Of a stretch of DNA of 64,000 nt, positions 2,293-41,540 are shown in pieces (position 1 is the first letter of the stretch; each line of letters starts with the position of its first letter). Below the pieces are notes generated by a model. It ran no database searches and was not told the origin of the DNA. It saw only the letters and a program-made list of their open reading frames with translations. Position numbers and translations under genes: made by a program. Source of the stretch: Armatimonadota bacterium. Its GTDB lineage: Bacteria; Armatimonadota; HRBIN16. Location: contig OW818647.1 of the NCBI GenBank assembly GCA_942492855.1, forward strand, positions 1,142,264-1,206,263, in the 5' to 3' direction.

Positions 2293-4047
2293 CTATATCC
2301 GCTCTGGGGTTCCCTTGCGCAGCTTCAACTTGTTGCCCTTCATGGTCAGCTCACGCGCGGGGGTGGCCGCTAACTCCACCGCGGCGGTGACGTCGCGCCG
2401 CTGGTCGCTCATCTCGTTATCGGAAATTGTGATCTGCTTGCATCGGGCAAGCCGGATCAGGGCCGCACGCCGGATGGTGGGTTTCTGCAGTGCGGTGCGG
2501 ATGGTGTTCTTGCGGATGGTCACTTTGGCGCACGCCTGCAGCGAGATCGCACAGCCGGGATAGTCGGTGAACGAGTTGCCCTCAATCAATATGTTGGTGG
2601 CGTAAGGTGTGACTGTGGGTGCGTATTTCGAGTCGATGGAGCCGATCTCAATCGCACCACTCTGTGGCGAGTTGCTATAGAACCGCCCCTTGCCCGTGCC
2701 GATGATCTTGTTGTTTCGGATGACCAGGTTGTTGGGGATGGGGCCTTCTGGCCAGCCCGGGTCGTTGTGGATGACGAGTGCCGTGCCGTTGGTGTCATTG
2801 ATGATGCAGTTCTCCACTATGCCGTTGCAGCCTTTCAGGTTAGCCGCGAACCGCCGATGCCCCTTCATGCTGCATCCAGTGATCTTATAGCCACTGCCGC
2901 TGGCGGACAGGTTGTAAAGCGTGTCGGCCTTTTGGTGGGTATCGCCGACCACCACGCCGTTGATGGGTGTGTCGAGGGTGATGGTGAGCTGCCCTGGCTG
3001 CTGATCCAGCTTGGTGACCCGCCCCTGACCGCGAACGACACCTTCGATACCGCTGAACACCTGCACCAGATCGCCCTGCTTCATGTTGCTCCAGCCCATT
3101 TTGAAGCGCAGTTGGTCAGGCGCGGGCTGCTCCGACACCACATACGCGGGGCAGTAGATGTTGATAGCGTCGTCGGCCATGCCCTCAAAGTGGCAGTTGC
3201 GGATGAGCGGACCCACGCGGTTGCTCTGGCAGTGGATGCCATCGGAGCAGGTGGTCAGCAGACGATTTGTGCCGGGGCGAATCTTCACGCGAAGATTTTC
3301 AATCAGCGTCTGGTCTTTCGCACCGACCAACGCCACGTTCAGGCTGCTGTAGCTGTAGATGAGTATGTTGCGGAACACCACTTTGCTGCTGTCGATGGCG
3401 TGCAGAACGCTCAATCCCAACCGGGCCAGCATCACATACAGGTCGCCGGCCACCACATTGTCCAGCACCCACCGGTTTTCGGGTGTGGTGTCCAGTTGCC
3501 AGTCCTGGCCACCCAGGTGGGTATATTTAACCACGGGGTAGTAGTCACCCGCGGAGTTCTTCGGGTTGCGTGTTTTGGGGTCCATCACCATGCCCCAGTT
3601 TTGGTAGGGCGGTTTGGCCTCTGCATACCACGGCTTATTGAAGTCCGGGTAGCCCTCATCCAGCCGGAGGTGCATGTTGCCCTCTTTGGCGTTGACCTTG
3701 GTGATCACACCCTGGCTGAAGGGCAGGGGGTCGCAGTCGAAAATCAGGTCTTTCACGGTGATGTTCTGGCAGTTCTGCAGCAGGATGCCCCAGTCACGCG
3801 GATCGGTGAAGATCAGCTCCGACTTGCCAGGCACGCCCTGCAGGGTGACATCTTTCATGCCATTCATCGTAAGGGTGTTTAGGTGGTTGGAACTGGGCTC
3901 GCAGTTCAGCAGATACCGGCCGGCCGGTACCTGGATGATCGTGGGAGTGCCAAGCTGCTTGGCTTTAGCCGCAGCGGCGCGCAGAGCGGGGCCTGCATCC
4001 GTGTTTGGTTGTGCACCGAAATCTGTGATCTTCAGAATAGTAGGCAT
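2293..4047 (-). CDS. Pectate-lyase-superfamily right-handed beta-helix protein. The N-terminus has the DFGA...G.Y motif and the body has parallel beta-helix repeats. It is a paralog of the N-terminal half of 60849..63644.
   Basis: The ORF track gives 2293..4104. I place the start at the internal ATG (MPTILKITDFGAQ) because AAGGA lies 7 nt upstream. The motif NCHFEGMADDAINI matches RCSFEGMADDAINV in the 931-aa paralog. Confidence 0.6.
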   Translation of the reverse strand: MPTILKITDFGAQPNTDAGPALRAAAAKAKQLGTPTIIQVPAGRYLLNCEPSSNHLNTLTMNGMKDVTLQGVPGKSELIFTDPRDWGILLQNCQNITVKDLIFDCDPLPFSQGVITKVNAKEGNMHLRLDEGYPDFNKPWYAEAKPPYQNWGMVMDPKTRNPKNSAGDYYPVVKYTHLGGQDWQLDTTPENRWVLDNVVAGDLYVMLARLGLSVLHAIDSSKVVFRNILIYSYSSLNVALVGAKDQTLIENLRVKIRPGTNRLLTTCSDGIHCQSNRVGPLIRNCHFEGMADDAINIYCPAYVVSEQPAPDQLRFKMGWSNMKQGDLVQVFSGIEGVVRGQGRVTKLDQQPGQLTITLDTPINGVVVGDTHQKADTLYNLSASGSGYKITGCSMKGHRRFAANLKGCNGIVENCIINDTNGTALVIHNDPGWPEGPIPNNLVIRNNKIIGTGKGRFYSNSPQSGAIEIGSIDSKYAPTVTPYATNILIEGNSFTDYPGCAISLQACAKVTIRKNTIRTALQKPTIRRAALIRLARCKQITISDNEMSDQRRDVTAAVELAATPARELTMKGNKLKLRKGTPERI

Positions 4048-4611
4048 GGCACCATCCTTTGGGTGGGTTGTGATTACCTGTATGATAGCAGAACGGCAGG
4101 TCAAGGGGTAGTTGGCGGTTATGTGGTGGAGGATTCATCCACAGATTATGCCGATGTCACAGACGAGGTGATGACCGGCTTTACTACCGATGACACGAAA
4201 CCACACCACCCCGCAAAAGGAGAACCGGCGTGGAGGGTCCGTGGGGCCCGGCGTGCATTAGGGTAGTCAATTGCCCACAGGTTGGATCACCGGGATATAG
4301 CGTTGTATAACGATGTATACCGGCCCTACCACGCGCTCAAGCACGTGGCTATTGACAGGCCAAGCCTGCTGAAGCAGGCTGCAGGGCTTCGCCCTGTTAG
4401 TGAAGCTGGCGCATGTAGCCATATGCAACGATATTAAAACTAACACCCGGAACTGATGGTACGGCGCGGTGTTCCGTAGGCCGCTTTAGCGGTCTTTTTT
4501 GTCAATAGCCATGTGCTTTAGCGCGTGGCGGTGCTTCAGATATATTTGTGGGTAATAGACTGGTGCATTAGGGCAAGGTATATGCGCAAATCGCCCCTCC
4601 TGACTCCTCCT

Positions 4612-7356: not shown

Positions 7357-8394
7357 CTAGCCCATCGCCTGGCGGGCGAGTTTGAGGGCTGAGGCGAATA
7401 TCGAGGCGGTGGCGTCTGGCGATGTGGTGTATCCCTGCCCGCCGGTTCCTTGCCGCATGACGGCGATCTCCACGTCGCCCTCTTTCTTCAGCTCCACAAG
7501 CACATCACCGAAGCGCGGGATTTTGGCCTCTTTTTGGGTGTTCTTATCCTTGAGGCTTGTCAGTAGTCCGGCGAAGAGCCCTGAATCGGCCTTAGTCAAC
7601 AGCGGGCGGATGCGATTCACCAACCCAAATGAGGGCTTCGCGATGAGCACACAGTAGGTGTACGGGTATTTGGTGCTCTGCACCGTGTTCATGGTGGTTT
7701 GAACCTGGATGCCGTAGAAGTCCTCGGGTGCTGCCGTCAACTTCACCATCATCTTCACATCCACCGGCACGGAGCCGTTGGCGGTCTGCGCAACCTGGAT
7801 GCTGGGCTGGAAGGTGACATCCTTGATATCAGCCATCATGTCATATAGCGGCATGAGCTGGTTGATTTTCGTGCGCATCTCCACCGGCTCCCAGCTTTTC
7901 ACCACACCACTGATCCAGAGCGGCAGCAGCAGAGTCACCGCATCCATCACGAACAGAGTGCTCAGTGAGCCGCCCGCCATGATGGGCACCATCGGCGAGG
8001 GGTTGAAGTTATCTGAGCCCGAATTCATGAGGTTCGCGGCTGCGAACGCCAGCAGTATGATGATGCCGATGAACATCAAACAACCACCCGCTGAGCTCAG
8101 CGAAAACATACCCGCCGCTTTCTTCACATCGGTGCTTTCGCGCAGCATGGCAAGAAGTCCGTTGAACTCGTTGATGGTCACACTTTTCCATTCGCGGTCA
8201 CGGGTGAACTTGGGCACGTTGGAGCGGCCCTTTAGCATGCCCAGCAGTGCGGCGGCCAGCACCCCCACCCAGCCGATAATCGGCGCGATTGTGAACTGGA
8301 CGATGATGCCCACCACTGCGCATATCACCATCAATGCATATCGTGTCTGGATGGGCATCGAGTTGGCAATGACGAATTCAGGCGATTTGTTCAT
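7357..8394 (-). CDS. Polytopic membrane protein (about 5 N-terminal TM helices plus a soluble C-terminal domain). Function unknown. It is the last gene of the (ACHS)n/rSAM locus.
   Basis: The 345-aa ORF has hydrophobic segments. It lies immediately downstream of the IS-truncated rSAM gene on the same strand. Confidence 0.55.
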   Translation of the reverse strand: MNKSPEFVIANSMPIQTRYALMVICAVVGIIVQFTIAPIIGWVGVLAAALLGMLKGRSNVPKFTRDREWKSVTINEFNGLLAMLRESTDVKKAAGMFSLSSAGGCLMFIGIIILLAFAAANLMNSGSDNFNPSPMVPIMAGGSLSTLFVMDAVTLLLPLWISGVVKSWEPVEMRTKINQLMPLYDMMADIKDVTFQPSIQVAQTANGSVPVDVKMMVKLTAAPEDFYGIQVQTTMNTVQSTKYPYTYCVLIAKPSFGLVNRIRPLLTKADSGLFAGLLTSLKDKNTQKEAKIPRFGDVLVELKKEGDVEIAVMRQGTGGQGYTTSPDATASIFASALKLARQAMG

Positions 8395-8572
8395 GCTTTT
8401 CCCCCCGTTTTTGAAGGCTGGTCAGCTCCTGGTAACCCATCGCCTGCCAGTAGATCGGGCAGGCACCTGTGCAGATATCAAACTGTGCACAGGCTTTACA
8501 GATTTTGTGTGCATAGCGTTTGTCACGCCAATAGCGTGCCTGAACTTTGGCTATTTCATCGCATACAGCCAC
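8378..8572 (-). pseudogene. 3' remnant of the IS-disrupted radical SAM gene. It encodes the SPASM C-terminal motif C-x2-C-x5-C-x3-C (CKACAQFDICTGAC). The first 11 codons are read out of the IS end.
   Basis: The 64-aa ORF contains ARYWRDKRYAHKICKACAQFDICTGACP. The ARYWRD stretch is identical to the last residues (RARYWRD*) of the rSAM ORF 10430..11722. Confidence 0.7.
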
Positions 8573-9234
8573 GCAGGATATTGGTGAATTTCGGAGTTTT
8601 GACGGCTTCGTGTTTTGGAATTTGACATAGGATGTATCGACGCTTGTAGCCTTGACACGACATCCCCATAGTCACGCTCATTCGGCGAGTCAATTACCTC
8701 TTGCCTCATAAACATAGCCAATCGATTAGTCGATAACCTGCCATCAATCGTTCGACGCTGCCACTTAGGCCTGGGCAGCTCCTCATCCTTCACACCAGAA
8801 ATTATCGCAGCGAGATGCATTAAACTATATACCCATACCAGAAACGGAATGACATTGCAGACTGAGTTCTCACACCATACCTGCGGATCACCGATACCAA
8901 AGTAGCTTTTCTCCTCACGAAACGCCACCTCCTGCTCCCACCTCCAGATATATAACTGCACAACCTGTTCAATTGGCATATCTGGATCAGAACACAGGAC
9001 GTAAGCCGGGTTTCGATATAGTATCCTTCCGTTCTTCCTGAGTCTATATGGTGTTGGTGCAACCACGATCAGTCTGAAATCTTGAGCTCCTACCCCTCTC
9101 CATCTCACTCGGTCGACGGTCTTGATCCTCACAACGTGGAATTTGCCAGACGAGTAAACGCATATGTGTTCCCATTCATATGAATCGTCCTGTCGTATCA
9201 GGTCAGGCTTGGGGTACAGGGTCTCCATATACAC
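8551..9234 (-). CDS. DDE transposase, C-terminal ORF (carries the Y(2)R(3)E(6)K motif). It overlaps the N-terminal ORF in another frame, so the transposase is probably frameshift-inactivated.
   Basis: 227-aa ORF. The YIWRWEQEVAFREEK motif is typical of IS4-superfamily transposases. Confidence 0.6.
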   Translation of the reverse strand: MYMETLYPKPDLIRQDDSYEWEHICVYSSGKFHVVRIKTVDRVRWRGVGAQDFRLIVVAPTPYRLRKNGRILYRNPAYVLCSDPDMPIEQVVQLYIWRWEQEVAFREEKSYFGIGDPQVWCENSVCNVIPFLVWVYSLMHLAAIISGVKDEELPRPKWQRRTIDGRLSTNRLAMFMRQEVIDSPNERDYGDVVSRLQASIHPMSNSKTRSRQNSEIHQYPAWLYAMK

Positions 9235-10009
9235 GTCGCTTTCCAGTTTTTGGCTGCTTGTCTGGCAGTTTCGTCAACTTGGCATCACGACGTAACCGTC
9301 CAATGATCGTGGTGTTCTCCGGGATTTTAGTCAACATGGTCTTGTTCATGTAACCTCCATCTACCGTTAACACAAGCCGCCTGTGCCTTGAGTTTGGGTC
9401 CTCATCCATTCTTTCGCGTAGCTCCTTCATGGCGTCAGCCCCCACCTTGGTAACCCGGCAGGCCTTCTGGTCCGTCTTGTATTGGCTGCGCTGCTCGTCA
9501 GTCGCTTTCGGACCTGGCTTCTTGGGAGTAGGTGCGTGCAGCATGTTAATAGGGATAGCAGTGGCCCGGCTATGATATCCGTTGAAGGGGACAAGAGCTG
9601 ATAACTGAACACAACGCTGACCATGTATGAAGTTCGGGCGGTATTTTGGCCCTTGAGGGTCTCTACGTAAGGAGACGCCATGCCCCTTTGTCCCTTTGCG
9701 CGGGATTATCGTATCATCCATCGCGACAACAAACGGCATGTTCTCTGGAGTGAGGCTGATCGCTTGCTGTAAAACGGTGTCCCAGCACTGGGACACCGAG
9801 ATACGGTTTTGTTCAAAGATGCGGTAATACGCTGACCAGTCTTTGTCAGCCTGACCAGCTGTCTGGATGATCCCTGTGATTGTGTGTCTTCCGACGGTTG
9901 CCGTGGCCGCCAGAGCGATCTGCTGGGACTTTTCATAGGTTCGCTGTTGGTTAAACGCATCGCGTGCCAGTTCATAGAGAAGCATAAATGCAGGCAATAC
10001 TTTGCTCAT
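9203..10009 (-). CDS. DDE transposase, N-terminal ORF (DDE_Tnp_1-like; VVAMDDT and LTVDGGY Asp motifs)
   Basis: 268-aa ORF that overlaps the 8551..9234 ORF by 32 nt. Confidence 0.6.
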   Translation of the reverse strand: MSKVLPAFMLLYELARDAFNQQRTYEKSQQIALAATATVGRHTITGIIQTAGQADKDWSAYYRIFEQNRISVSQCWDTVLQQAISLTPENMPFVVAMDDTIIPRKGTKGHGVSLRRDPQGPKYRPNFIHGQRCVQLSALVPFNGYHSRATAIPINMLHAPTPKKPGPKATDEQRSQYKTDQKACRVTKVGADAMKELRERMDEDPNSRHRRLVLTVDGGYMNKTMLTKIPENTTIIGRLRRDAKLTKLPDKQPKTGKRRVYGDPVPQA

Positions 10010-10429: not shown

Positions 10430-11626
10430 TCAGTCACGCCAATAGCGTGCGCGGCGCCCCTCCCACACCCGGTTGAACGGCGTGCGCAGCAGGTTCCCCA
10501 CGCTTTTGGGCAGGCTGGAGCAGGGCAGCACATCGCCGGTGGGCGATACGCTGAGCAGTCCGTCGCACGCGGCGCAGGACTTGCCGCCCAGTTGGGAGGC
10601 CACCGGATTAAACAGGCAGTATGGCGTGGGCGAGTACCACATAAACTCGATACCCTCATCACGAGCCGCCTGCTGAATGCCCGCCATCAGACCAGCCATC
10701 TCGGTGTAGCTGATGGTCACCTCTTCATCAGGCGCGCTGCCGCATGGGATCACCATGTTCATGGAAAGCCGCTTCATGCCGATGCTCTTCACGAAGGAGA
10801 TGAGCTCGGTCAGATGCGCCGAGTTCATGCGGTTCACCGTGGTGTTGGTATGCACATGGAGACCACTCCGCTTCAGCAGCTCCACACCCCGAACCGTGCG
10901 GTCGAATGAACCAGGGAGCTGCGTTAGACGGTCGTGAACCTCCGCATTCGGACCTTCCAGGCTGACCTGCGCGCTGCGTAGACCCGCGGCCTTCAATCCC
11001 GTGACCAGCTCCTCGGTGAGGTTGGTGCCGTTAGTGATGAGGTTCACACGGATACCCAGTTCGGTGGCGTAGGCGGTCAGTTCGACCAGGTCTTTACGTA
11101 GGGTGGGCTCACCGCCGGTCCAACTGACGCTGGGCACTTCGGCGTCCTGCTTAATGATCTGCAGCACCCGTTTGACTTCGTCCGTGCTCATTTCTTTGCA
11201 GTCTGGGAGTTTTTTGCACTGGCAGCCGGCGTAGCAAAAGCGGCAGCTCAGGTTGCAGCGGTATGTGAGTGCGATCTCCGATAGCACCGGCAGTGTGTTG
11301 AAGGGCCTTTGGTAGGGCACCACATCCACCGATATGCGGTCGTGACCCTCACCCAGGCAACCCATGACCATCGCACGGATGTCGCTGAAGAAGTCGCTGA
11401 TGTCCTTCAGCTTGGCATCATCATCCGCCATCTTCGTGCTGCGGCTACTGATCACCTCACGGATCGGCCGCCCTCTCAGCGTCTCCTTGAGCAGCAGCAG
11501 GCCCGTTTTATTGATCTTGTAGGCCTGGTTTGGCAGCAGGATGAGCAGGCTGTCGCGCTCGCGGACGGTCACGTGCGGTTTGATACTCTCCACAAAGCTG
11601 TCGATCCAGTCGATGCGGCTCTCCAT
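10430..11626 (-). CDS. Radical SAM enzyme with an N-terminal PqqD-like RRE and a SPASM domain. It is a RiPP-maturase-like protein. The IS insertion truncates it about 48 codons before its original end.
   Basis: CNLSCRFCY is the CxxxCxxC motif. The N-terminal region (90 aa) HVTVRERDSLLILLPNQAYKINKTGLLLLKETLRGRPIREV looks PqqD-like. Additional Cys clusters are present near the C-terminus. The likely start is MESRIDW at 11626, whose ATG overlaps the upstream stop in TGATG. The track ORF extends to 11722 through the repeat region in a different frame. Confidence 0.8.
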   Translation of the reverse strand: MESRIDWIDSFVESIKPHVTVRERDSLLILLPNQAYKINKTGLLLLKETLRGRPIREVISSRSTKMADDDAKLKDISDFFSDIRAMVMGCLGEGHDRISVDVVPYQRPFNTLPVLSEIALTYRCNLSCRFCYAGCQCKKLPDCKEMSTDEVKRVLQIIKQDAEVPSVSWTGGEPTLRKDLVELTAYATELGIRVNLITNGTNLTEELVTGLKAAGLRSAQVSLEGPNAEVHDRLTQLPGSFDRTVRGVELLKRSGLHVHTNTTVNRMNSAHLTELISFVKSIGMKRLSMNMVIPCGSAPDEEVTISYTEMAGLMAGIQQAARDEGIEFMWYSPTPYCLFNPVASQLGGKSCAACDGLLSVSPTGDVLPCSSLPKSVGNLLRTPFNRVWEGRRARYWRD

Positions 11627-13317
11627 CAGTGCGCGCCTCCGCTGACGCACGCGCTGTGACATGCCGAGTGGCACGCGCTGTGACAGGCACTGTGGCACGC
11701 GGAGTGGCAGGCACTGTGGCAAGCGTCATGACACGCGGTATGCACGTAGCACGCAGAGTGGCAGGCCTGCGAGCTCATAAAGGAGCTGAAGTCCTGGCTC
11801 TCGATCAGTTCATCGCCCTTGATGCCTTGCGCGATTTCATCCGGGCGGGAATCTACATACCGGTTGGTGGTGTGATAATGGGTGGTGCCATACCAGTAGT
11901 GCGCATAATACCGCGGATACCGGCGTTCATGCATCATGAAGCCCTCATCGCGTTGCTCTGGGGCCTCCTCCATTTTCTTGTATTGCTCGGCGATGACCTG
12001 CCGGTACCACTCCTTAGTCGCCTCCAGGTCGCAGTCCCACGCTTTGCGCTGGATTTGGTCCACCATATCCTGGAACATCGCCTCAAAATCGGCCGCCAAT
12101 AACGAGCCATCTCCACGGATGCGGCTGAGAAGCATCTCCTCATACCGGTTATCCGCTGACTGGTCAAGCGGGTAGAGCCGCTCCAGCTTGATAGGCTGCA
12201 CCTGCAGCACTTTCACCAACGCCACCGACTCCATGCGGGAGATCATCGCACCGAGAATGCGCGGCAGGGGCACCTCCAGCAGCATGGCCGCTTCGATCAT
12301 ATCCAGCTCAGCGATTTTGCCAGGGATGCGGTAGCTGGAGACCTCGATTTTCGGAGGAACCCACTCGCCGCGCTCCCAATCCACCTCACTCAGCTCACTT
12401 AACGCCGCCGTGGTGGACTTCATTTTGCGGCTGAGCAGCAGCAGCGAGACCACCACCACCCCAATCAGCAGGCCCCCTCCCAGCATCATGCGTCCCATGT
12501 TCTGCTGTACTCGTGGAATGTCGGGGAAACCCAGCTCATTCGCTACTCCGCCGTTTCCTGAGCCTGTTTGACCAACCAGCGGCTGATCGGACTGGGTTGC
12601 ACTAGAGGTCTGTTTCAACGTAAACAGGCTGGCGTTGATGTAGGTGGAGAGGCGCATGTGATATTGCGGCGGGGGGTTGTTTTTGTGGAAGCGCACCGTC
12701 AGCCAGTTCTTACCGTTGGCCGGTTGACCGTAATAGCTGATGAGATACTCCGAGTTGACATACTTCTCTGTGCGAAACCCAAGCTTCGTCAGCAGTTCTT
12801 GAGATACCGTCTTGCTGGCGGTGCTGATCGGATAGTGCAGATAAACCGTCATATGCTCAGCGGCTTCATCGAACTGGCACGGTGACCAGTTGAAATACAC
12901 CAGTTTCCCAAACTCGCTTTGGGTATACCCCATGTACCCGGCGGACACAAAGTCGGTGGCATAAGGGATGATGTAAGTGACCTCGCCGGAGCTCACAGAG
13001 GCCCCCTTGGCCAGCACCACGTCGAACTTGTTGCCCATATCCGTGATGGAGAGCCCGTATTTCCTGCCTGAGGAGTCGATCGCAGCCGCCTTGCCGTAGT
13101 CGAAGCGCGGGGCGGCGCTGCCAAAGCCCTCCAGGTAGAATCCGTGCAGCTCTCCGCTTAGAACCTTGTAACGAACTTTGTACACCACAATCGCCCGGCC
13201 GTCCTTTGTGGGCGAAACATCCACCTCAACCCACTTCAACACAGCCTCGGTGGCCATCGCACAGGTGGCCAGGATGCACAGACCGATGGCGATCAGCAGC
13301 TTACAGACATTTCTCAC
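11626..13317 (-). CDS. Secreted/membrane-anchored protein (signal peptide, beta-rich N-terminal domain, central TM helix, possibly DUF2207-like). The C-terminus is a Cys/His-rich tandem tetrapeptide repeat: ...ACHSACYVHTACHDACHSACHSACHSACHSACHSACHSACVSGGAH.
   Basis: 563-aa ORF. The signal peptide is MRNVCKLLIAIGLCILATCAMA, the TM segment is MMLGGGLLIGVVVVSLLLLS, and the C-terminal (ACHS)n tail is as shown. Its stop overlaps the rSAM start codon. Confidence 0.65.
   Translation of the reverse strand: MRNVCKLLIAIGLCILATCAMATEAVLKWVEVDVSPTKDGRAIVVYKVRYKVLSGELHGFYLEGFGSAAPRFDYGKAAAIDSSGRKYGLSITDMGNKFDVVLAKGASVSSGEVTYIIPYATDFVSAGYMGYTQSEFGKLVYFNWSPCQFDEAAEHMTVYLHYPISTASKTVSQELLTKLGFRTEKYVNSEYLISYYGQPANGKNWLTVRFHKNNPPPQYHMRLSTYINASLFTLKQTSSATQSDQPLVGQTGSGNGGVANELGFPDIPRVQQNMGRMMLGGGLLIGVVVVSLLLLSRKMKSTTAALSELSEVDWERGEWVPPKIEVSSYRIPGKIAELDMIEAAMLLEVPLPRILGAMISRMESVALVKVLQVQPIKLERLYPLDQSADNRYEEMLLSRIRGDGSLLAADFEAMFQDMVDQIQRKAWDCDLEATKEWYRQVIAEQYKKMEEAPEQRDEGFMMHERRYPRYYAHYWYGTTHYHTTNRYVDSRPDEIAQGIKGDELIESQDFSSFMSSQACHSACYVHTACHDACHSACHSACHSACHSACHSACHSACVSGGAH
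11632..11727 (-). repeat. Imperfect 12-nt tandem repeat (about 8 copies) that encodes the (Ala-Cys-His-Ser)n tail
   Basis: The plus strand reads GAGTGGCACGCG CTGTGACAGGCA CTGTGGCACGCG GAGTGGCAGGCA CTGTGGCAAGCG.... The copies differ mainly at synonymous positions (TGC/TGT, AGC/TCT/TCC/TCG, GCG/GCA/GCC). Confidence 0.8.
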
Positions 13318-13329
13318 GTCAGTATGTCC

Positions 13330-13740
13330 CCTTTGCTTAGAGTAAAGCGTATGTCATTATTCTGACATATCTACGCAGATTCCTGCGTGGGAATGAAAAC
13401 CAAGGTGGGGAAGGCACGGCAAGCCATCGTAGGGTCAGGCCATCGTAGGGGCGACCGGCCGGTCGCCCACCACTCTGCAGGGCGAACGGCCGTTCGCCCC
13501 TACCAATGACCGCGCCGGTTTTCCCTAACCGGGGCGGTCTGGCGGATAGCCCAGGGAATTGTCTGAACCACGGATGACACGGAGGATGGGGGGCGTTGCA
13601 GCATCCGCCTCGCAGCCAACCCGCCAGCCCCCCGCCGCGGCATAAATGCCACGGCTTATTAGCCGAAAAGCCGGCTGAAGCCGGCTGCCTGGGCACGCCA
13701 ATCGCCTGATTGGCCTCATATTTCACACACATCGCCGCTT
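13330..13740. repeat. Composite intergenic repeats (GTAGGGGC palindromes, the GGCGGATAGCC/GTCTGAACCACGGATGACACGGAGG module, and the GCCGCGGCATAAATGCCACGGC/GGCTGAAGCCGGCT hairpins)
   Basis: These are the same repeat subunits as at 1745-2290, 18340-18870 and 21650-21955. Confidence 0.55.
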
Positions 13741-13827: not shown

Positions 13828-13953
13828 ATGAACAGTTCTTCGATACGTGACAACCACCTTCACGGTACCGTAGGGGAATACGCCATCCCCGCCGAAGGCT
13901 GCCGTGTGATCGGTGTGTGTGTTGCGCTCACCCGCGGTAAGGGCGGGTTGTAG
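13828..13953 (+). CDS. Conserved micro-ORF copy 1 (...IPAEGCRVIGVCVALTRGKGGL*). It ends 11 nt before the Abi_C-like gene.
   Basis: A 22-codon C-terminal core is shared with the 16555..16635 micro-ORF (IPAEGCRVIGVGKALTRGKRGF). Nucleotide differences are concentrated at wobble positions. The true start is uncertain; the first in-frame ATG is at 13828. Confidence 0.3.
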   Translation: MNSSSIRDNHLHGTVGEYAIPAEGCRVIGVCVALTRGKGGL

Positions 13954-13964
13954 GGGAGATATAG

Positions 13965-14765
13965 ATGTTTGTAGAAGATTATCGTGAATGGCATGAATTG
14001 GATGATCATGAAAAGCTGAAGTTGGTTAAAAAGCTGAAGCAGATTGTAATAGAAGTAGTAAAAGGTGATGTCTACCCTCGGCAACATAATAGTGAATACA
14101 GCTACCTTCACTACAAGATCATGCGTGCACAAATCGACCTTGTTCCTGAGATTGTAGAGATGTGCAACAACGCAGCTGGGCTTATATCTTATCTTGAAAC
14201 TGAAACAAAATCTATCAGTGATGGAGCAGAAATAGTAAATACCCAGTTCGCTCCACTCCTTGCGGTCCTTAGCAGTTTTCCTGGTGATGATCCGATATCT
14301 GATGCCATCACGGGATTAGGGATTGACCAGATCAACAAGGTATGGTCAAGGTGTTTAGAGAGGCGAACAACCGAACCTGATGCGGCGATTACATCAGCTC
14401 GATCCCTAGTAGAAACGGTATGTAAGCACATAGTACTCGAACCTCAAGACGCAGATGATGAGGACCTTGACTTTGTCGTGCTATACAAAAAAGCAGTCAC
14501 CAAGCTAAACCTGCATCCTACTCAGGCTGTAGACAAACAATACAAACAACTACTACAAGGATGCCTAAGCATCATAAATCCTATTGGAACTATTCGTAAC
14601 TGGACGGCAGATTCCCATGGTAGTGATCCTAAAACCGTTCCTGTATCGGTGGATGAGGCAACGCTGATAGTAAATATAGCAGGCAGTATCGCGATGTTTT
14701 TGCTTACCAAGTGGCATAACGAACCGCTAAAACCAGCAGATAACCCATTCGGATTATCGTTTTAG
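13965..14765 (+). CDS. Abi_C-like protein (abortive-infection C-terminal domain motif RNWTADSHG), a putative phage-defence protein
   Basis: 266-aa ORF in an AT-rich island. It has a C-terminal R-N-x4-S-H-G motif and an acidic, helical N-terminal region. Confidence 0.4.
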   Translation: MFVEDYREWHELDDHEKLKLVKKLKQIVIEVVKGDVYPRQHNSEYSYLHYKIMRAQIDLVPEIVEMCNNAAGLISYLETETKSISDGAEIVNTQFAPLLAVLSSFPGDDPISDAITGLGIDQINKVWSRCLERRTTEPDAAITSARSLVETVCKHIVLEPQDADDEDLDFVVLYKKAVTKLNLHPTQAVDKQYKQLLQGCLSIINPIGTIRNWTADSHGSDPKTVPVSVDEATLIVNIAGSIAMFLLTKWHNEPLKPADNPFGLSF

Positions 14766-15054
14766 TGATTCCTCGAGATGTGTTACAATGAGGGAAATGA
14801 CAGACAGCCAACTGAGATGCAGTAATTACCCATGGGGAATACAGTTTACAGTTATAGATATGCCTCTCTATGAACACAATAACTACCATCTCTGGCAACC
14901 TTTCCGTTGTCATTATTACGGTTATGCACGAACGTACATATTTTTCTTCTTATTTTAAAATAAGTGGTTAAAGCGGATGGGAGTGTGGTTCTTTTACAAT
15001 CAAACGACATATCACCTGCCAACTAAGAGACCACGGTTGAACAGAGGTTGCTGC

Positions 15055-15645
15055 ATGAAAGACTTTCCCATGCATATCATAACAAAACCCCTTCTGGGTT
15101 TGGCACTCTGCGGGTCATTCCTACTGATTCGCATATTCACCCCGGGTCATCCGTTCTGGTTGAAATATCAGTCATTCACGGTGCCGTTTATAACAATTAC
15201 ATTGTTTTATGTTTTGTGGTCACTTGTTGAATACCGTAGTAACATATCTAGGGTATACCGAACTATCAGCTACAGGATAAGAAAATATCAAGAACGACGA
15301 TTGACTATGCAACTGAGCGAACTAACTGGTGAAGAACTGTTGCTAGCTTGCTGTCTGTCTTACAATGAGACGGTGAATTTACCTACCGACTACCAAGCTG
15401 TAAGAACACTCAGGAAGATACGACTAGTTAAACAGAGTCGCGTATCTGGTGATTCTTCAGTATATGCAACCAGGTTTTGCCGTCAATGGTATCTCGATAT
15501 CGCTCATATCGTGTTGCTAGAAAAAATCAAGACCCGTGACGAACTAGATGATATACAATGTCCGATTCTCGAGAGGATTGTACCTCATTTGAAAGATACG
15601 ATAATGTTTAACATAGATTATGCAAGAATCGTAAATGAATGGTAA
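15055..15645 (+). CDS. Hypothetical membrane protein (2 N-terminal TM helices)
   Basis: The track ORF is 14977..15645. I use the internal ATG (MKDFPMHIITKP) at 15055 because AGAGG lies 8 nt upstream. Confidence 0.4.
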   Translation: MKDFPMHIITKPLLGLALCGSFLLIRIFTPGHPFWLKYQSFTVPFITITLFYVLWSLVEYRSNISRVYRTISYRIRKYQERRLTMQLSELTGEELLLACCLSYNETVNLPTDYQAVRTLRKIRLVKQSRVSGDSSVYATRFCRQWYLDIAHIVLLEKIKTRDELDDIQCPILERIVPHLKDTIMFNIDYARIVNEW

Positions 15646-15985
15646 ACATCGCAGATTTCTTTCGGGTAAAATGCCCCTAGGGCAGTTAGCTTTCGTATCA
15701 CAGGAAAACTAGAGCGGCATAAGTCAGGGTGACTACATCGGCCTGGTGCACCGCGATCCGCATGATGGCGATGTGGTTCTGGTGGATACGCTCGACGGTC
15801 CGCGCCATGCCCGTTGGACCGATGGTATGACCGCCCTGGCCGTGTTTGAGGGGTTCTACAGCTACAGCGCAGAGTAGGGTGACTGGCTGGTCGCCCATGT
15901 GCCGAGCCAAACGAAAAGAAGGATTCCCCGCGTGCGATGGTGAAGGTTACCGCGCAACACATCGCCCGTTAAAGGAGCCTTCACC

Positions 15986-16555
15986 ATGAAAGCTATCGTG
16001 CCCATAATCGGCCTTGTAATCGTGGTCGTATTCATGGTCGTAATCTACAATGGCATCACGGCGTTCAACACAAAACGCGTATCACAGAAGGATGTATGGA
16101 AGCAGGCCCAGCTCATCACCACCGACCTGCTGTTAAGTCCAAAAACGGCACAATACCCCAAACTGGGTGAACGCGGCGTGGAAGTGGAAAACCGCGGAGA
16201 TTCCACATACTGGGTTAAGGGTTTCGTCGATTCGGCCAACGGCATGGGTGTTCCCGTGCGCACACGCTTCGAAGCAGTCATCCAGTGCCTTGGTGCCAAC
16301 AAGTGGAAGACCGTATCATACGACACTGAAGAAGCTAAAGCCATACGCAAGATTACAGAGGATGTTACAAAGGCGTTTGATGACGGCATGAAACAAGTCA
16401 ACGAGATCACGGCCAAGGCTGAGGCTGAACAGCAGCGAGCCGAACGCCAAGCCCAGATAGAGGCCGCGCAACTCGAAGCACAGCAGCGCCAGCTTGAAGC
16501 GCAGCAGGCACAACCAGCACCACAACCCGCCAGCAATTGGGGTGGATCGCAATGA
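15986..16555 (+). CDS. Hypothetical membrane-anchored protein with a C-terminal Gln/Ala-rich coiled-coil
   Basis: 189-aa ORF with an N-terminal TM helix (IVPIIGLVIVVVFMVVIY) and an EAEQQRAERQAQIEAAQLEAQQRQLEAQQAQ tail. AGGAG lies upstream. Confidence 0.5.
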   Translation: MKAIVPIIGLVIVVVFMVVIYNGITAFNTKRVSQKDVWKQAQLITTDLLLSPKTAQYPKLGERGVEVENRGDSTYWVKGFVDSANGMGVPVRTRFEAVIQCLGANKWKTVSYDTEEAKAIRKITEDVTKAFDDGMKQVNEITAKAEAEQQRAERQAQIEAAQLEAQQRQLEAQQAQPAPQPASNWGGSQ

Positions 16556-16635
16556 TGGATACCATCCCAGCCGAGGGCTGCCGTGTGATCGGCGTGGGTA
16601 AGGCACTTACGCGTGGAAAAAGGGGTTTTAAATGA
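16555..16635 (+). CDS. Conserved micro-ORF copy 2 (MDTIPAEGCRVIGVGKALTRGKRGFK). It is translationally coupled on both sides: a TGATG overlap upstream and an ATGA overlap downstream.
   Basis: The start ATG overlaps the stop of 15986..16555, and its own stop overlaps the ATG of 16632..17606. It is a paralog of the 13885-13953 segment. Confidence 0.35.
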   Translation: MDTIPAEGCRVIGVGKALTRGKRGFK

Positions 16636-17606
16636 TGGTGATAACTTTTATATTGGATGCAATCATGTGGTTTTTCAAGAACGTCATTCCGACGATGCTT
16701 GGTGTGTTCCTTGCATTTGCATTGGAAAACAAACGAGCTCACGATGTAAGGAACAATGAATTCAAGGTTAGTTTAGAGATGGCAATAAGGGAATGTACTA
16801 ACTTGAAAAAAACCATCGATGAAAATGTGGCACCTGTGAATGAGGAATTTAACATGCAGGGTGGCGGTATCCACACCGGCCAGGCGAGAATGCTTGAACC
16901 CACAGCTTTGCGGACCCTACTAAACTATCCTTCTGTGATCGGGCAGGAACTAGAGCAGGTGTACCAGATCATTGATGTATGTAAGACGCTAAACATGTAT
17001 TACAGTGCACGTTATGATCAGACAGTAGTCCGGATCGGATATAATCCCACCCAGTTGTCGGCAACAAACTTTTCTATCATAGGCTATACTAAACAAGCAA
17101 TTGAAGAAATCGATAAATTTGTCACTAGTATGAACCATTCGAATCACTGCATTAGTCGTGACAAGCCATTTTGGAGACGCATACTAATGAATGAACGAGC
17201 CAATATGTATACCGCTGTAGTGGTCTGTGGCGTCCTGTCCGGTTATGTCGGCGCAATGATAGCCATGGAACGCCCTATACGGCAGCTTAAGGTACAACAG
17301 ATCGACATCATAATCCATAACAAAGTAGTCGCCACGCTGGGCACAACCAAAGGATCAGGATGCCTATATCTAAACTACGATAATGGCCGACCGTTGATCG
17401 TTCTGGGGACAGCAAGCAAACAGCCTGGGCTGTCGTTGATGGACGAAAGAGGAAGGTCCAGAGTTGGGTCGGCTATTGGGAATGAAGGATCGGTAATTTG
17501 GCTGTCGAATGGTAAAGGGAAGGACCTCATCACGATCTGCGTCAAAGGTAACAATCCGTCTGTGACGTTGCGTGGGGCAAAGACCGAGAAGGAATACAAG
17601 CCGTAG
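16632..17606 (+). CDS. Hypothetical protein (N-terminal TM helix, a second hydrophobic segment MYTAVVVCGVLSGYVGAMIAM, and a C-terminal soluble region)
   Basis: 324-aa ORF. An internal 23-aa segment is duplicated at 34290-34380 on the minus strand. Confidence 0.5.
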   Translation: MMVITFILDAIMWFFKNVIPTMLGVFLAFALENKRAHDVRNNEFKVSLEMAIRECTNLKKTIDENVAPVNEEFNMQGGGIHTGQARMLEPTALRTLLNYPSVIGQELEQVYQIIDVCKTLNMYYSARYDQTVVRIGYNPTQLSATNFSIIGYTKQAIEEIDKFVTSMNHSNHCISRDKPFWRRILMNERANMYTAVVVCGVLSGYVGAMIAMERPIRQLKVQQIDIIIHNKVVATLGTTKGSGCLYLNYDNGRPLIVLGTASKQPGLSLMDERGRSRVGSAIGNEGSVIWLSNGKGKDLITICVKGNNPSVTLRGAKTEKEYKP

Positions 17607-17689: not shown

Positions 17690-18000
17690 TTGAGTAGACT
17701 CAGTTGGAATCAAATCCGAGTAAATGCCGCACGCTTCGCCGATGAATGGAAACAAGCTCGGTATGAGCGCGGTGAAACTCAGAGCTTCTATAACGACTTC
17801 TTTGAGGTCTTCGGGGTGAATCGGCGCAAGGTGGCCACATTCGAAAAGCCTGTCAAGAAGCTCGGTGGCAAGCAGGGGTTCATCGACCTGTTCTGGAAGG
17901 GTGTGCTGATGGTTGAGCAGAAAAGCGCTGGACGCCAAAGGGCAGGGCTGCGAAGCCTACGAGCGCGAAATCAACGAACGCGTCGCCGCGCTATATGGGT
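17690..18000 (+). pseudogene. Remnant of an MmeI-family type IIG restriction-modification enzyme gene. The N-terminal 80 codons are joined, after a frame change, to a short C-terminal tail (...EREINERVAALYGL*). An internal deletion of several kb is inferred.
   Basis: The N-terminal segment WNQIRVNAARFADEWKQARYERGETQSFYNDFFEVFGVNRRKVATFEKPVKKLGGKQGFIDLFWKGVLMVEQKS is the conserved N-terminus of MmeI/YeeA-like methyltransferase-endonucleases. Homology stops after about 80 aa, and an alternative frame ends in a typical RM C-terminal tail. Confidence 0.55.
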
Positions 18001-18029
18001 TGTAGTTCATAATAATAAGGAGCACATCT

Positions 18030-18332
18030 ATGCATACAGACACGGGAACCTGCGTACTGTGCGAACACACACCGGTTACGATTAGTCAAGACGATACAAA
18101 CCGAAAGCCATTCTACGAGTACACTTGCCCCCATTGCGGTGTTTTCAATATCACCCATAGTTTCAAGGACTTTTTGCCAGGTTACATTGCTCGAGACCCC
18201 CTGTTAGTCAAACGACTGCAAAGGTATCTTAAGGAACATCCAGTCGAAAATGTGATATTCACCCAACTACCAGACCCTATCGATACCTACGTCGTTCTAG
18301 ATGCAACATCAGCGATGGCGTTGCCAGCCTAA
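18030..18332 (+). CDS. Small zinc-ribbon protein (CxxC...CxxC)
   Basis: 100-aa ORF with the Cys pairs CVLC and CPHC. GGAG lies upstream. Confidence 0.35.
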   Translation: MHTDTGTCVLCEHTPVTISQDDTNRKPFYEYTCPHCGVFNITHSFKDFLPGYIARDPLLVKRLQRYLKEHPVENVIFTQLPDPIDTYVVLDATSAMALPA

Positions 18333-18339
18333 TCACCAT

Positions 18340-18870
18340 TCTTCGCGATGGCATGATGCCGCAGGCCTAGGGGCAATCCCCCGTGGTTGCCCAGCCTAAC
18401 GGTGCGCAGCACCTCAGCCGGCTTCTAGCCGGCTTTTCGGCCAAATAGCCGTGGCATTTATGCCGCGGGGCCAGATCGTGCGGGGTGGCGGATGACCCAC
18501 TTCGGGGTAGGGTTCTTTGGCATCTTTTCCAGGGGTTACGCTGCGCTTACCCCTGGCTATAATGAATCGCACCCGCTTCGGGGTGCCCGGAATGCCAACA
18601 AACCCCGTTGGTATTTCCTCCCCATCCGTGTCATCCGTGTAATCCGTGGTTCAGACGATCCGGGGGCTATCCGCCAGACCGCGCCGGATGATATCTGCAT
18701 GGCGATTGCGAGCGTACTGACAAACCGGCGCGGTCATTACCAAATCTGCGTCATCTGTGTAATCTGTGGATTGATATTCCCTCCGCGCTCTCTGCGTCGT
18801 CACCTGCGGTGGCGCGTGAGACTTCCCCTCTGTGCCCTCTGTGGTTTTGACGCATTTCGTTACCATCCGG
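18340..18870. repeat. Composite intergenic repeat cluster upstream of gyrA (a permuted copy of the modules at 1745-2290)
   Basis: CCATCCGTGTCATCCGTGTAATCCGTGGTTCAGAC, GGCTATCCGCCAGACCGCGCCGG, GAGCGTACTGACAAACCGGCGCGGTCA, TCTGCGTCATCTGTGTAATCTGTGGA and CCTCTGTGCCCTCTGTGGTT are all present. Confidence 0.6.
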
Positions 18871-18976
18871 AGTTTTGCTGGGAAGCGGTTCAATCTGTTA
18901 TAATATAGTGGGAATTTTAGTCAATTTCTGCTTGTACAGGCCCATCTCCGCACCCACGAAAGGACGTCACGCACCG

Positions 18977-21589
18977 ATGCCAGAAGACGAAAGCCAACCA
19001 ATACCGCTCGCAAATATAGTCAATGTATCGCTAGAGAAGGAACTCGCCACGTCGTATCTCGGATACGCCATGAGCACCATTATTGCACGTGCATTGCCCG
19101 ATGTTCGAGATGGTATGAAGCCGGTGCAACGGCGTATCCTCTTCGCCATGCGCGAACAGGGAGTGGGGCCTAACTCGGCCCATGTGAAGTGTTCCGCCGT
19201 TGTCGGCGAAACCATGAAGCGCTTCCACCCGCACGGCGACGGTGCCATCTATATGACTCTAGCGCGTATGGCGCAGGAGTTCTCACTGCGATATCCGCTC
19301 ATCTCAGGACAGGGAAACTTCGGCTCCATTGACGGCGACAGCCCGGCCGCCATGCGGTATACGGAATGCCGCCTCAGCCAGGTTGCCATGGAGATGATGG
19401 AGGATATCGACAAGGAGACGGTCGACTGGGAAGACAACTACGACCAGTCCACCAAAGAACCCACCATCCTCACGGGTAAGTTCCCCAACTTCCTGTGCAA
19501 CGGTGGTCAGGGTATCGCCGTGGGTATGGCCACCAACCTGGCACCGCACAACCTGCGCGAAATTGTGGATGCGCTAACCCTGCTGATCGACCACCCTGAC
19601 AGCACCATCGCGGAGCTGATGCAGGTGGTCACCGGACCGGACTTCCCCACCTACGGCCTCATTTTGGGCACAAAGGGAATCCAGGGAGCCTACGAAAAAG
19701 GCCGCGGCCAGGTGATCATGCAGGCCAAAACGCAGTTCGAGCCGATGGACAACGGCAAACACTGCATCGTCATTACAGAGCTTCCTTACCAGGTGAACAA
19801 GGCGCGCTTAATTGAGCAAATTGCCGACCTGGTGAAACAGAAGCGTGTGGACGGCATCACTGGTCTAGACGACTTTACCGACCGAACCGGTATGCGCGTG
19901 GTGATCGAGCTTCGGCGCGACGCCAACCCGCACAAGATACTAAACTTCCTGCTCAAGCATACCCCGATGCGCAGCACCTTCGGCTTAATCATGCTGGCAC
20001 TCGATGCCAACACCCCGCGCGTCATGAATCTGAAGCAGGTGCTCAACCACTACCTGATGCACCGGCACCAGGTCATCACCCGCCGCACCATTTACGAAGT
20101 GTTCCGCGCTCAGCAGCGTGCCCATGTGCTGGAAGGCTTGCAGATTGTCGTCCGCGAACTGGATGAGATCATCAAGATCATCCGCCATTCGAGCAACCCG
20201 GAAGCCGCGCGCCGCGAGATCATGAAGCGGTTTGACCTCACCCAAATCCAGGCTGAGGCCATTCTAAGCATGCAGCTCCGCCAGTTGACCGGCCTGGAAC
20301 AGACACGCCTGGAAGACGAGTATAAGGATCTTCTGCGCACCATCGCCCACCTGGAAGACATCCTGGTTGATGATGCCCGCATCTGGGAGATTATCAAGGG
20401 CGAACTGAAGGAGATGCGCGACAAGTACGGCGACGACCGCCGCACCCGCATCATCGCCACCGAAGCCAGCGACATCGGCGAAGAGGATATGATCCCTGAA
20501 GAGGATATGCTGATCACCATCACCCGTGATGGCTACATCAAGCGTCTACCGATGGACTCGTTCAAAATCCAGCACCGAGGCGGTAAGGGTGTCATCGCAG
20601 CGAACAAGAAGGAAGAGGACAGCCTCGAGCATATCTTCCAGATCAGCACGCACCATTACATCCTGTTCTTCACCAACAGGGGCCGTGTCTACCGACTGAA
20701 GGCTTACGAAGTGCCCCAGTCCAGCAGACAAGCCAAGGGTATGCCCATCATCAACCTGATTCGCATTGAATCCGATGATGTGCTGACCGCTGTGGTGAGC
20801 GTGAAGGACTTCCGCGAAGACCGGTTCCTGATGATGGCCACCCAGAAGGGTGAAGTGAAACGCACCTCACTCAGCAACCTGGCGAACCTTCGGGCCAACG
20901 GCCTGTTCTGCTTCAACGTGGAAGAGGGCGATGAGCTGGGATGGGTAACTTGCACCGATGGCGACGAAGAGCTGGTGCTCATCACCGCCGAGGGCATGAG
21001 CCTTCGCTTTAAGGAGACCGATGTGCGCGCCTCCGGACGACAGTCTGGCGGTGTGCGCGGTATCCGGCTGGAAGACAACGACCAGCTTGTGGCGATGGTG
21101 AAGCTGCAGGAAGACCGCGATCTGCTGGTCATCAGCGAGAACGGCTTCGGCAAGCGGACCCCGTTGAATAGCTACCGTCAGCAAACGCGCGGCGGTAAGG
21201 GCATCATCACCATGAATGTCACCAGCAAGACGGGCACGGTTGTGGGCGCCCGAGCGGTAGTGCCCGATGAGCAGGTGATCCTGGTCACCGCGGGCGGTAA
21301 GGCGATCCGCTGCAGTGTGGGCGACATCCGGCAGAGCGGGCGCAACGCCTCTGGTGTGCGCATCATGCGCATAGGCGAAGGCGAACGGGTGAGTGCTGTG
21401 GCGAGAATTAACAACGCCATAGACGAAGAGAGCCCGGAAGCAGGAGCCGCACCGGCCGCTAAGAAGGCCAAGCCGGTCAGTGCCGATGATGACACCGAGT
21501 TGATGGACGATGTGGACATCATCGATGAAGAGCTTCTGGACGACGAGGAGCTTGAGGACATCGAGGATACCACAGAGGACGAAGAGTAG
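18977..21589 (+). CDS. gyrA: DNA gyrase subunit A
   Basis: Canonical GyrA motifs are present: the active-site region [10 protein letters not shown], six C-terminal beta-pinwheel blades and an acidic C-terminal tail. The start is placed at [10 protein letters not shown] (the track ORF begins at 18875). Confidence 0.93.
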
Positions 21590-21649: not shown

Positions 21650-21955
21650 TACCGAGGGGTGTTTCACAGCCGGATGTATTTGCAGTTGATGATCCACAGA
21701 TCAGGAAACGACCGCGCCGGTTTTTTAACAAGATACCAATCGCCTAACAGCCCATCCCGGCGCGGTCTGGCGGACAGCCCACATCAGCAGCCCATCCCGC
21801 CGCGACATCAATGTCTCGGCTATTAGCCAATAAGCCTGCTGAAGCAGTCTGGGTCGCCGTTGGCGTGAATATCCTCAGCCCGTTTCAACGGGCTTCCGTT
21901 TAATTAGCCGTGGCATTCATGCCGCGGAATGGAAGGCGAGGCCCAAACTGAGCCC
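21650..21955. repeat. Composite intergenic repeats (GACCGCGCCGG, GGCGGACAGCC, the CCGCGACATCAATGTCTCGGCTA hairpin, the CCCGTTTCAACGGGCTTC hairpin and GCCGTGGCATTCATGCCGCGG)
   Basis: Shared subunits with 830-1130, 13630-13700 and 43820-43970. Confidence 0.55.
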
Positions 21956-40839: not shown

Positions 40840-41540
40840 GGCGGGTTGATGTGGGGCGTTCTGTGGGCAACAACAATAGCCAGTGGCCCAGTGCCGCGCG
40901 GTGTAGGAACCCAGATGATTACCCACTAATATGTGTCGGGCCCACCTTCCGGCCGTAAATCGATTGTCGGCATGCCGCGGGTTTAGTCACCCCAGACTAT
41001 TACCCACATCTCCCCGCCGCGCCCTGAAGGACGGCGGCTTATTAGCCGGTAAGCCGGCTTGAAGCCGGCTGCAGCCATGAAATCTGGTTTGAGAACGTGT
41101 AGAAACGGTGAGGTATGGTGTCATTGCACTTGGTGTCTCGGTATTTCAGACGTCTTTAGACGGCTTTTCGGATAAGAAGCCGCCGTCCTTCAGGGCGCGG
41201 CGGAGTGGCATACACCATCATATAACGATAAAACATTACGTTCCGACATGTGGGTAATAGACTGGGCTGAAAGCCCTGCGGCTAACTAGGCTCGAAGCCG
41301 GCTACCGGAATCCTGTTGCCGGGTGTGAGATGGGCTTCTTACCAAAATGCGATGTATGGCGTACCCCAGCCGGCTTCGAGCCGGCTTTTCGGGTACGTAG
41401 CCGCAGGGCTTTCAGCCCGCGGCCGTCGGCGTAATCGGTCAGCGTTACTGATTTATCCCCGTAGTTATATATGGGTCATTGACTGGGTTTCGTCACCCAT
41501 CGGTAATGACGAATGAATATCACCGAACTCAACCAAGGAG
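40840..41540. repeat. 700-bp repeat-dense intergenic region that includes a nested MITE-like element. Its roughly 50-bp inverted termini are CCCAGACTATTACCCACAT...CCGCCGCGCCCTGAAGGACGGCGGCTTATT and AAGAAGCCGCCGTCCTTCAGGGCGCGGCGG...ATGTGGGTAATAGACTGGG.
   Basis: The long inverted repeats are at 40985-41045 and 41170-41260. Extra hairpins GCCGGCTTGAAGCCGGCT and AGCCGGCTTCGAGCCGGCT are present. Confidence 0.65.

Follow-up and report, generated by a model that had tools for sequence, protein, structure and literature searches.

Two repeats in a low-GC island of an Armatimonadota genome

The DNA analyzed here, referred to as the window, is a stretch of 64,000 nucleotides (nt) from an Armatimonadota bacterium (GTDB lineage HRBIN16; assembly GCA_942492855.1, contig OW818647.1, positions 1,142,264 to 1,206,263 of the forward strand), and it contains an island at ~13.74-18.41 kb with a GC content of 42-50% (across 14-18 kb) versus 57-60% around it. 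Within this island are two copies of a short repeat, each just upstream of a different gene: copy 1 precedes a gene for an abortive-infection-like protein (AbiJ/Abi_C), and copy 2 precedes an open reading frame (ORF) for a protein of 324 amino acids (aa), orf324. We found that the repeated sequence corresponds to the 3' end of a cI-like phage repressor gene, and we consider it likely, with a probability of roughly 0.8, that both copies are what remains of cI/LexA-type prophage repressor genes that lost their 5' part in the mosaic evolution of prophages. All positions without a locus name are those of the window.

A repeat search of the window aligned copy 1 (13883-13949) with copy 2 (16562-16628) over 67 nt at 76% identity, in agreement with the ~75% given by an earlier, sequence-only reading of this DNA, and local blastn of the two copies gave a core of 35 nt with 91% identity (E = 1e-10). 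The exact 17-mer GGCTGCCGTGTGATCGG occurs at two sites in the 64-kb window, namely those of copy 1 and copy 2, and the peptide of each copy, searched by tblastn against the window, recovered the other copy alone (21 aa, 86% identity, E ~1e-7 to 1e-8); neither search gave a further copy in the window, the remaining tblastn matches having E >= 0.007. Over the 22 codons common to both copies (a 66-nt core), 13 of the 17 differences were located at third positions (hypergeometric P = 3e-5), with 10 synonymous and 4 non-synonymous codon differences. The sequence-only reading had noticed the same clustering and had concluded from it that the sequence evolved as coding DNA; both the observation and, in our judgement, the conclusion were correct.

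Copy 1, the repressor-tail relic 1 (13871..13953, + strand), comprises the last 27 codons and the stop codon of a cI-like HTH_3/Peptidase_S24 gene (GEYAIPAEGCRVIGVCVALTRGKGGL, then stop). Its repeat is real, as the earlier reading had it, but homology to the parent gene begins at ~13870-13873 (GEYA...) and not at 13885. Upstream of 13870 the homology was not above that of shuffled sequences, and a colinear TTCTTCG..GACAAC match (back to ~13835) was not significant. Relic 1 forms the end of a 41-codon chimeric ORF (13828..13953, +), in which 15 unrelated codons are fused to it; the 41-aa product is identical to a predicted protein (P0005, NCBI source) that was retrieved with a profile of the tail, and exact-sequence look-ups of P0005, the AbiJ-like protein and orf324 returned no record. 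The stop codon (13951-13953) lies 11 nt before the ATG of the Abi_C-like gene (13965), a gap that had been described correctly.

Copy 2, the repressor-tail relic 2 (16550..16635, +), consists of about 22 cI tail codons and a diverged junction, with homology starting at ~16550 (CAATGA) once small deletions are permitted, and it encloses a complete ORF of 26 codons (ATG 16555 to TGA 16635). Direct reading of the sequence confirmed this ORF and the junctions that had been reported for it: its ATG overlaps the TGA of the ORF at 15986-16555 (orf189) as TGATG at 16553-16557, and its TGA overlaps the ATG of orf324 (16632-17606) as ATGA at 16632-16635, so that the tail stop and the next start overlap by 4 nt. 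In the alignment with intact cI, relic 2 is 11 nt shorter between AATGA of the left junction and ATCCC, and the ATG of the 26-codon ORF arises at this deletion junction. The start codons and 5' ends of the two window ORFs are non-homologous. Separately, the 8-mer AATGATGG is present at both ends of copy 2 (16551-16558 and 16631-16638), and excising the 80 nt between its two occurrences would join orf189 to orf324 through a normal ATGA overlap; this pair was not seen at the counterpart locus L004 described below, and it may be due to chance or may mark an insertion or duplication junction.

The repeat matches the C-terminal end of full-length repressors in relatives

The conserved core was back-translated into a degenerate pattern, and one genome per species was scanned with it. 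Among these 185,579 genomes there were two matches, both in one Armatimonadota metagenome-assembled genome (MAG), OY781964.1 (loci L001 and L002), and in both the motif was the C-terminal end of a 218-aa ORF that finishes with GEYAIPAEGCRVIGVGVALTRGKGG[IL] and a stop codon. A third full-length copy, L003, came from a Logan assembly. The three genes are located at 3292-3948 (-) of L001, 2416-3072 (+) of L002 and 2-625 of L003. The 218-aa ORFs possess HTH_3 and Peptidase_S24 domains by Pfam (Peptidase_S24 PF00717, E = 2e-8 to 1e-10), match phrog_4 'transcriptional repressor', and are 25-28% identical to annotated CI-like repressors of temperate Streptococcus and Lactobacillus phages. No relatives came from motif scans of collections of metagenome and viral contigs or from profile-guided locus searches with the full-length repressor, and the repressor family is rare in the data searched. 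The sequence-only reading had proposed tblastn with the 26-aa peptide as a way to count copies and to see what follows them: there are no more in the window, and in relatives the motif is the C-terminus of a repressor, followed by genes that vary.

Compared with the last 22-27 codons of the 218-aa proteins, the window tails have 86-93% aa identity, and the nucleotide identity to the corresponding genes is 71-89% over the 66-nt core and up to ~90% over 74-81 nt by blastn. By tblastn, relic 1 aligned with residues 192-218 of the full-length L002 repressor (93% identity, E = 3e-11), and relic 2 with residues 197-218 (86-90% identity, E ~2-3e-6); the nucleotide identity of relic 1 to L001, L002 and L004 is 86-90%. 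The window tails, at 74% identity, are about as distant from each other as the intact alleles are (77-91%), and the third-position bias is just as strong among the intact alleles, where third positions account for 10 of 11 differences between L001 and L002 and for 13 of 15 between L002 and L003. The rest of the repressor was not found in the window, where tblastn of the full-length proteins gave residues 192-218 and 197-218 alone. The N-terminal helix-turn-helix (HTH) domain, present in L001, L002 and L003, was absent from the window by tblastn, and the region of a complete S24 domain is likewise absent, with no Pfam match in the 26- and 41-aa peptides even at E <= 10. Moreover, the stretches that precede the two tails are related neither to each other nor to cI. 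As fragments derived from the S24 repressor family (~10-12% of the protein), the window copies are not members of it.

The full-length repressors of L001-L003 have Cys at the usual catalytic Ser position (TG[VI]CMEP) and retain the Lys (MIKRS). Judged from these motifs, they may represent a Cys-Lys variant of the LexA/cI self-cleavage site, or the domain may be inactive.

The gene downstream is different at each locus: SieB in L001, orf174 in L002, orf208 in L003, AbiJ after copy 1, orf324 after copy 2 and orf261 in L004. The SieB (superinfection exclusion) gene of L001 begins at the repressor stop codon with a 1-nt overlap, the unrelated 208-aa gene of L003 (orf208) begins 4 nt past it, and orf174, a 174-aa membrane protein gene with a weak superinfection-exclusion PHROG match, begins 6 nt past the repressor of L002. 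Two of these downstream genes, AbiJ/Abi_C after copy 1 and SieB in L001, are of the exclusion or abortive-infection kind, and orf324, orf208, orf174 and orf261 have no match or a weak one. In addition, L001 carries a divergent cro-like HTH gene (HTH_3, 4051-4254), 102 nt from the repressor.

Counterpart relics in other loci

Besides P0005, the tail profile retrieved one more short predicted protein, P0004, which is a 79-aa chimera from another Armatimonadota MAG and whose locus, L004, has the same layout as the window. Its order is tail A (8088-8240, 49 repressor codons), a short slot, a 66-nt intergenic element, a homologue of orf189, tail B (L004_B, ~9385-9475) and the 261-aa gene orf261, and the flanks of L004 and of the window are unrelated (tblastx). 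The junction between orf189 and L004_B is the CAATGA also seen at window copy 2. L004_B contains +1 and -1 indels and an in-frame TGA, it has no equivalent of the 26-codon mini-cistron, and the next long ORF begins ~70-90 nt further on with its own AGGAGG. In L002, an extra internal cI fragment (RKGRRYFVPDNEDAGEYAIPTEG) is found past the accessory gene, without the ALTRGK end and with both ends gone. The left junctions and the tail lengths (~22, 27 and 49 codons) vary among the relics.

In L004, a 13-nt tandem duplication (CAAGGGTTACGTC x2, 9010-9040) breaks the orf189 homologue into ORFs 8780-9091 and 9052-9387; the island is decaying in the L004 genome too. No homology was detected between the AbiJ-like gene and orf261 of L004, and an HEPN-like R-x4-H motif read by eye in orf261 was discarded, being without Pfam support.

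Contents of the island

The AbiJ/Abi_C (HEPN-type) abortive-infection-like gene behind relic 1 is located at 13965..14765 (+; Pfam Abi_C 5.7e-16, PADLOC AbiJ 6.9e-18, phrog_23253 1e-35), and is followed in the same slot by orf222 (14977..15645, +), cargo of 222 aa that reads as a membrane protein and has no Pfam, PADLOC or PHROG match. Directly after the orf222 stop codon begins a relic of a second repressor of a different HTH type (15650..15877, +), which preserves the C-terminal 75 codons, interrupted by an in-frame TAG (15710-15712). By tblastn it matched residues 118-192 of a 192-aa HTH_3 protein, P0006 (61% identity, E = 3.8e-27), the stop codon lying within the alignment.

Just downstream of the second relic is the 66-nt intergenic element (15914..15979, +; GAAGGATTCC...TTAAAGGAGCC), which holds the ribosome-binding site (RBS) of the next gene and forms the right border of the variable slot. 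The element is also present at 2666-2734 (-) of L001, 1281-1349 of L003, 8707-8774 of L004 and, in diverged form, ~607-673 of L005; in L005 an intact second repressor gene is followed by the diverged element and then by a zinc-ribbon membrane gene. The genes that it precedes are unrelated, of the orf189 type or of the zinc-ribbon type. A hairpin in which GGAUUCC pairs with the GGAG Shine-Dalgarno (SD) sequence is possible, covariation was uninformative in this element (10 of 12 predicted pairs invariant), and it may be a translational control element or merely a conserved 5' untranslated region.

The element is followed by orf189 (15986..16555, +), whose 189-aa product has an N-terminal membrane helix and a Q-rich coiled region and is phage-associated (phrog_13160, 3.6e-10); the homologue at the same position in L004 (8780-9291) has 57-72% aa identity by tblastx. 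Downstream of relic 2, orf324 (16632..17606, +) encodes an ORFan with an N-terminal hydrophobic segment, for which no homologue was found at E <= 0.001 among 5.8 billion proteins and no Pfam, PADLOC or PHROG match. A further gene of the island, at 17690..18085 (+), encodes the N-terminal 131 aa of an MmeI-like type IIG restriction-modification enzyme (Pfam MmeI_N 3.9e-18; PADLOC REase_MTase_IIG 4.6e-20, profile positions 3-119 of 912), and this truncated, decayed defence gene lies next to gyrA (18875-21589). A Pfam scan of the ORFs at 13.3-18.9 kb gave no cro-like or other prophage genes; what is left at the window locus is therefore a remnant rather than a prophage. The island is a patchwork of modules, each with a repressor 3' relic and a lysogeny accessory or defence gene, and there are three: the tail with AbiJ/Abi_C and orf222, the second relic with the 66-nt element and orf189, and the tail with orf324.

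REP-like interspersed repeats are located at the left edge of the island (13505..13687), with an inverted partner at 18415-18738 (inverted repeats I1-I6). We considered these as the ends of a composite transposon and rejected them, as they belong to a dispersed REP-like family with other copies in the window at ~1807-2104, 21757-21927 and 41012-41392. A palindromic unit of this family, such as GGGCGACCGGCCGGTCGCCC, occurs at 13449-13503 and 15877-15897, and the ORFs 13337-13732 (-) and 18492-18908 (+), which lie within REP-like repeats, are probably not genes. A few kb upstream of the island, a DDE_5 transposase ORF (9203-10009) is overlapped by a 227-aa ORF (8551-9234), and this pair (8551-10009, -) may be a split or frameshifted insertion sequence transposase. 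The region 10430-13317 (-) contains a radical SAM/SPASM protein (430 aa) beside an unannotated 563-aa ORF; a radical SAM gene is also found beside the repressor locus of L002, with no detectable relation to that of the window (tblastx, E <= 1e-4).

Origin of the tails

The sequence-only reading had treated the repeat as a conserved micro-ORF and had offered three suggestions for it, of which the conserved junction of cassette-like modules was near the truth. An autonomous leader or regulatory peptide does not agree with a motif that is, in relatives, the C-terminal end of a 218-aa HTH and S24 repressor, and a tiny toxin/antitoxin component would need a constant partner, of which there is none, the downstream gene being different at each locus. 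The third-position bias, the neat start and stop overlaps of copy 2 and the listing of copy 1 as a predicted 41-aa protein (NCBI source) speak for a micro-protein. However, neither the integrity of the ORF nor a homologous start is kept, since L004_B has an in-frame TGA and the L002 relic is without both ends, and the peptides have no Pfam match. With its stop/start overlaps on both sides (TGATG and ATGA), copy 2 does resemble coupled mini-cistrons and leader peptides, and differs from them in that the ORF is not conserved in L004_B and that descent from a longer gene explains the sequence; no attenuator structure or rare-codon run was seen in the copies. The same holds for a structured RNA or recombination site unrelated to a larger gene: no Rfam match was obtained in 13828-16635 at E <= 1, and the folding energies of the repeats were no better than those of shuffled sequences (z = -0.84 and -0.27, single-sequence folding). 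For an attC-type junction, there was no significant hairpin in the repeat and no integrase or recombinase domain in the scanned ORFs, the attC consensus itself not having been searched, and no tRNA or tmRNA att sites were found in the window. The micro-protein reading is largely refuted, and we regard a peptide, RNA or site independent of the repressor gene as scarcely credible.

We therefore favour descent of both copies from truncated repressor genes. In the parent phages, an accessory gene of the Sie or Abi type would have been expressed together with the repressor during lysogeny, as are rexAB and bstA. The modules would then have been rearranged by illegitimate or homeologous recombination with breakpoints inside the repressor gene, and the surviving accessory genes would carry a repressor tail because breaks that leave such a gene functional must fall upstream of its RBS, inside the 3' end of the repressor. 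The two window tails would descend from two different repressor alleles that had diverged under selection within full-length genes, so that the differences between the tails are mostly synonymous and the coding signature is inherited. Relics with such varied extents and broken frames would be scars rather than a conserved small gene, and the peptides that they encode would presumably have no function of their own.

Several observations weigh against this explanation. Copy 2 has its junction in common with L004_B, yet the identity of the two is 78.5%, third positions make up 11 of their 14 differences, and at the protein level their identity (85% over 20 aa) exceeds that of the neighbouring orf189 (57-72%). 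Purely neutral relics of equal age should be more decayed, and the pattern calls either for intact alleles having replaced or converted the relics or for some constraint. Further, the relics that precede genes (copy 1, copy 2 and L004_B) have indels in the DNE..EYAIP part alone with the last ~20 codons clean, and the overlaps at the start and stop of copy 2 match the appearance of a coupled mini-cistron exactly. With five related loci in the searched collections, the statistics on these points are weak. Two causes that are not mutually exclusive fit the data: intact alleles may have replaced or converted the distal tail along with the downstream gene, and the SD sequence or coupling may impose a constraint.

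Constraint of the latter kind would be expected if the tails, though derived from a repressor, had been kept for expression of the downstream gene through an SD sequence in the KGG/KRG codons, with copy 2 as a translated spacer cistron that hands ribosomes from orf189 to orf324 by termination-reinitiation. In line with this, G-rich SD-like strings are located in or just past the tail, 6-9 nt before the downstream start: AAAAGGGG-TTTTAA-ATG in copy 2 (6 nt before the orf324 ATG), TAGGGGAG-ATATAG-ATG after copy 1, and AAGGGCGG before GTG or ATG in L001 and L003. The TGATG and ATGA overlaps of copy 2 and the indel-free last ~20 codons of the three gene-adjacent relics point the same way. However, the tail of L004_B is untranslatable as a unit owing to its in-frame TGA, and the next ORF there has its own AGGAGG ~70-90 nt on; no homology links the start codons of the two window ORFs, and the need for an SD sequence covers at most the last ~15 nt and not 66 nt. 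Exaptation of this kind seems unlikely to us.

Conversion leads to a different proposal, in which the tail and the 66-nt element would serve as the left and right homology arms, respectively, for swapping in accessory and defence genes; the donors would be superinfecting or co-resident related phages, and gene conversion from intact alleles would keep the tails coding-like. In the window, L001, L003 and L004, different genes occupy the slot enclosed by the tail and the 66-nt element, and L004_B is closer to intact L002 (92%) and to copy 1 (89%) than to copy 2 (78.5%). There is also a sharp switch within the relics from an indel-rich 5' part to a clean 3' part, the accessory gene of L002 lies between direct repeats of cI 3' sequence, and the site downstream of cI is a known hotspot of mosaic diversity that carries rexAB and bstA (PMC8585504). 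On the other hand, tails of 60-80 nt with 74-92% identity are a poor substrate for homologous recombination, the loci are too few for breakpoint mapping, and independent illegitimate events could give the same pattern. This route is possible, if doubtful; it describes an evolutionary process rather than a selected function, and does not conflict with the tails being remnants of truncated repressor genes.

If the arms were portable, an island or decayed prophage would use the tails and the 66-nt element to capture defence genes from superinfecting related phages. The result would be an integron-like array of 'tail + defence gene' units without a dedicated integrase, in which conversion would keep the coding look of the tails and translational coupling would perhaps play a part. 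We consider this extension distinctly unlikely. The tails could also be repeats of the attL/attR type, produced by a small integrative element that has the 3' end of the repressor gene as its target and carries a substitute for the tail. As direct repeats, they do enclose 2.6 kb in the window and 1.2 kb in L004, and the arrangement of L002 is tail, gene and tail fragment. No recombinase or integrase was detected by Pfam in the ORFs of >= 100 aa at ~13.3-18.9 kb, however, and the longest identical core varies, being the 17-nt GGCTGCCGTGTGATCGG in the window and a 23-nt stretch elsewhere in the tail in L004; the tail lengths (~22, 27 and 49 codons) and the left junctions differ as well. An integrative element is accordingly very improbable.

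Relation to known systems and significance

The locus derives from and works like the arrangement of cI plus an accessory gene in temperate phages. Among lambda-type immunity regions (cI-rexAB of lambda, cI-bstA of BTP1), the likeness is seen in L001, with its cI-like HTH and S24 repressor and divergent cro-like gene, and in the variable Sie or Abi gene located directly downstream on the same strand (SieB in L001, AbiJ/Abi_C after relic 1). The window differs in that its repressor is reduced to 22-27 codons without other prophage genes, and that a 4.7-kb chromosomal island of an Armatimonadota genome contains a stack of three relic-plus-gene modules; co-transcription of the accessory genes from a repressor promoter can no longer apply there. 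Within the Peptidase_S24 domain of the LexA/lambda cI/UmuD family, the last beta-strands are the counterpart of the repeated motif. Unlike that family, the window copies are fragments, and their full-length relatives have Cys, not Ser, at the nucleophile.

P2/P4 hotspots hold variable defence genes between conserved phage genes. These defence hotspots are similar in having conserved flanks (here the repressor tail and the 66-nt element) around unrelated, partly defence-like cargo, and different in phage lineage and flanking genes; one flank here is a gene fragment, and the locus is apparently a decayed remnant. The kind of system is known, and the instance is new in its host, Armatimonadota, and in its stacked relic modules.

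A short repeated ORF can owe its codon-position bias to a longer parent gene, and such bias alone is no proof of a micro-protein. Read in this way, the island is a patchwork of prophage immunity regions, with an AbiJ-like gene, two membrane proteins, three repressor relics and a truncated MmeI-type enzyme, and orf222, orf189 and orf324 are, by position alone, candidate exclusion or defence genes. These data suggest that in the poorly studied Armatimonadota, as in lambdoid phages, the slot downstream of the repressor is a hotspot for cargo.

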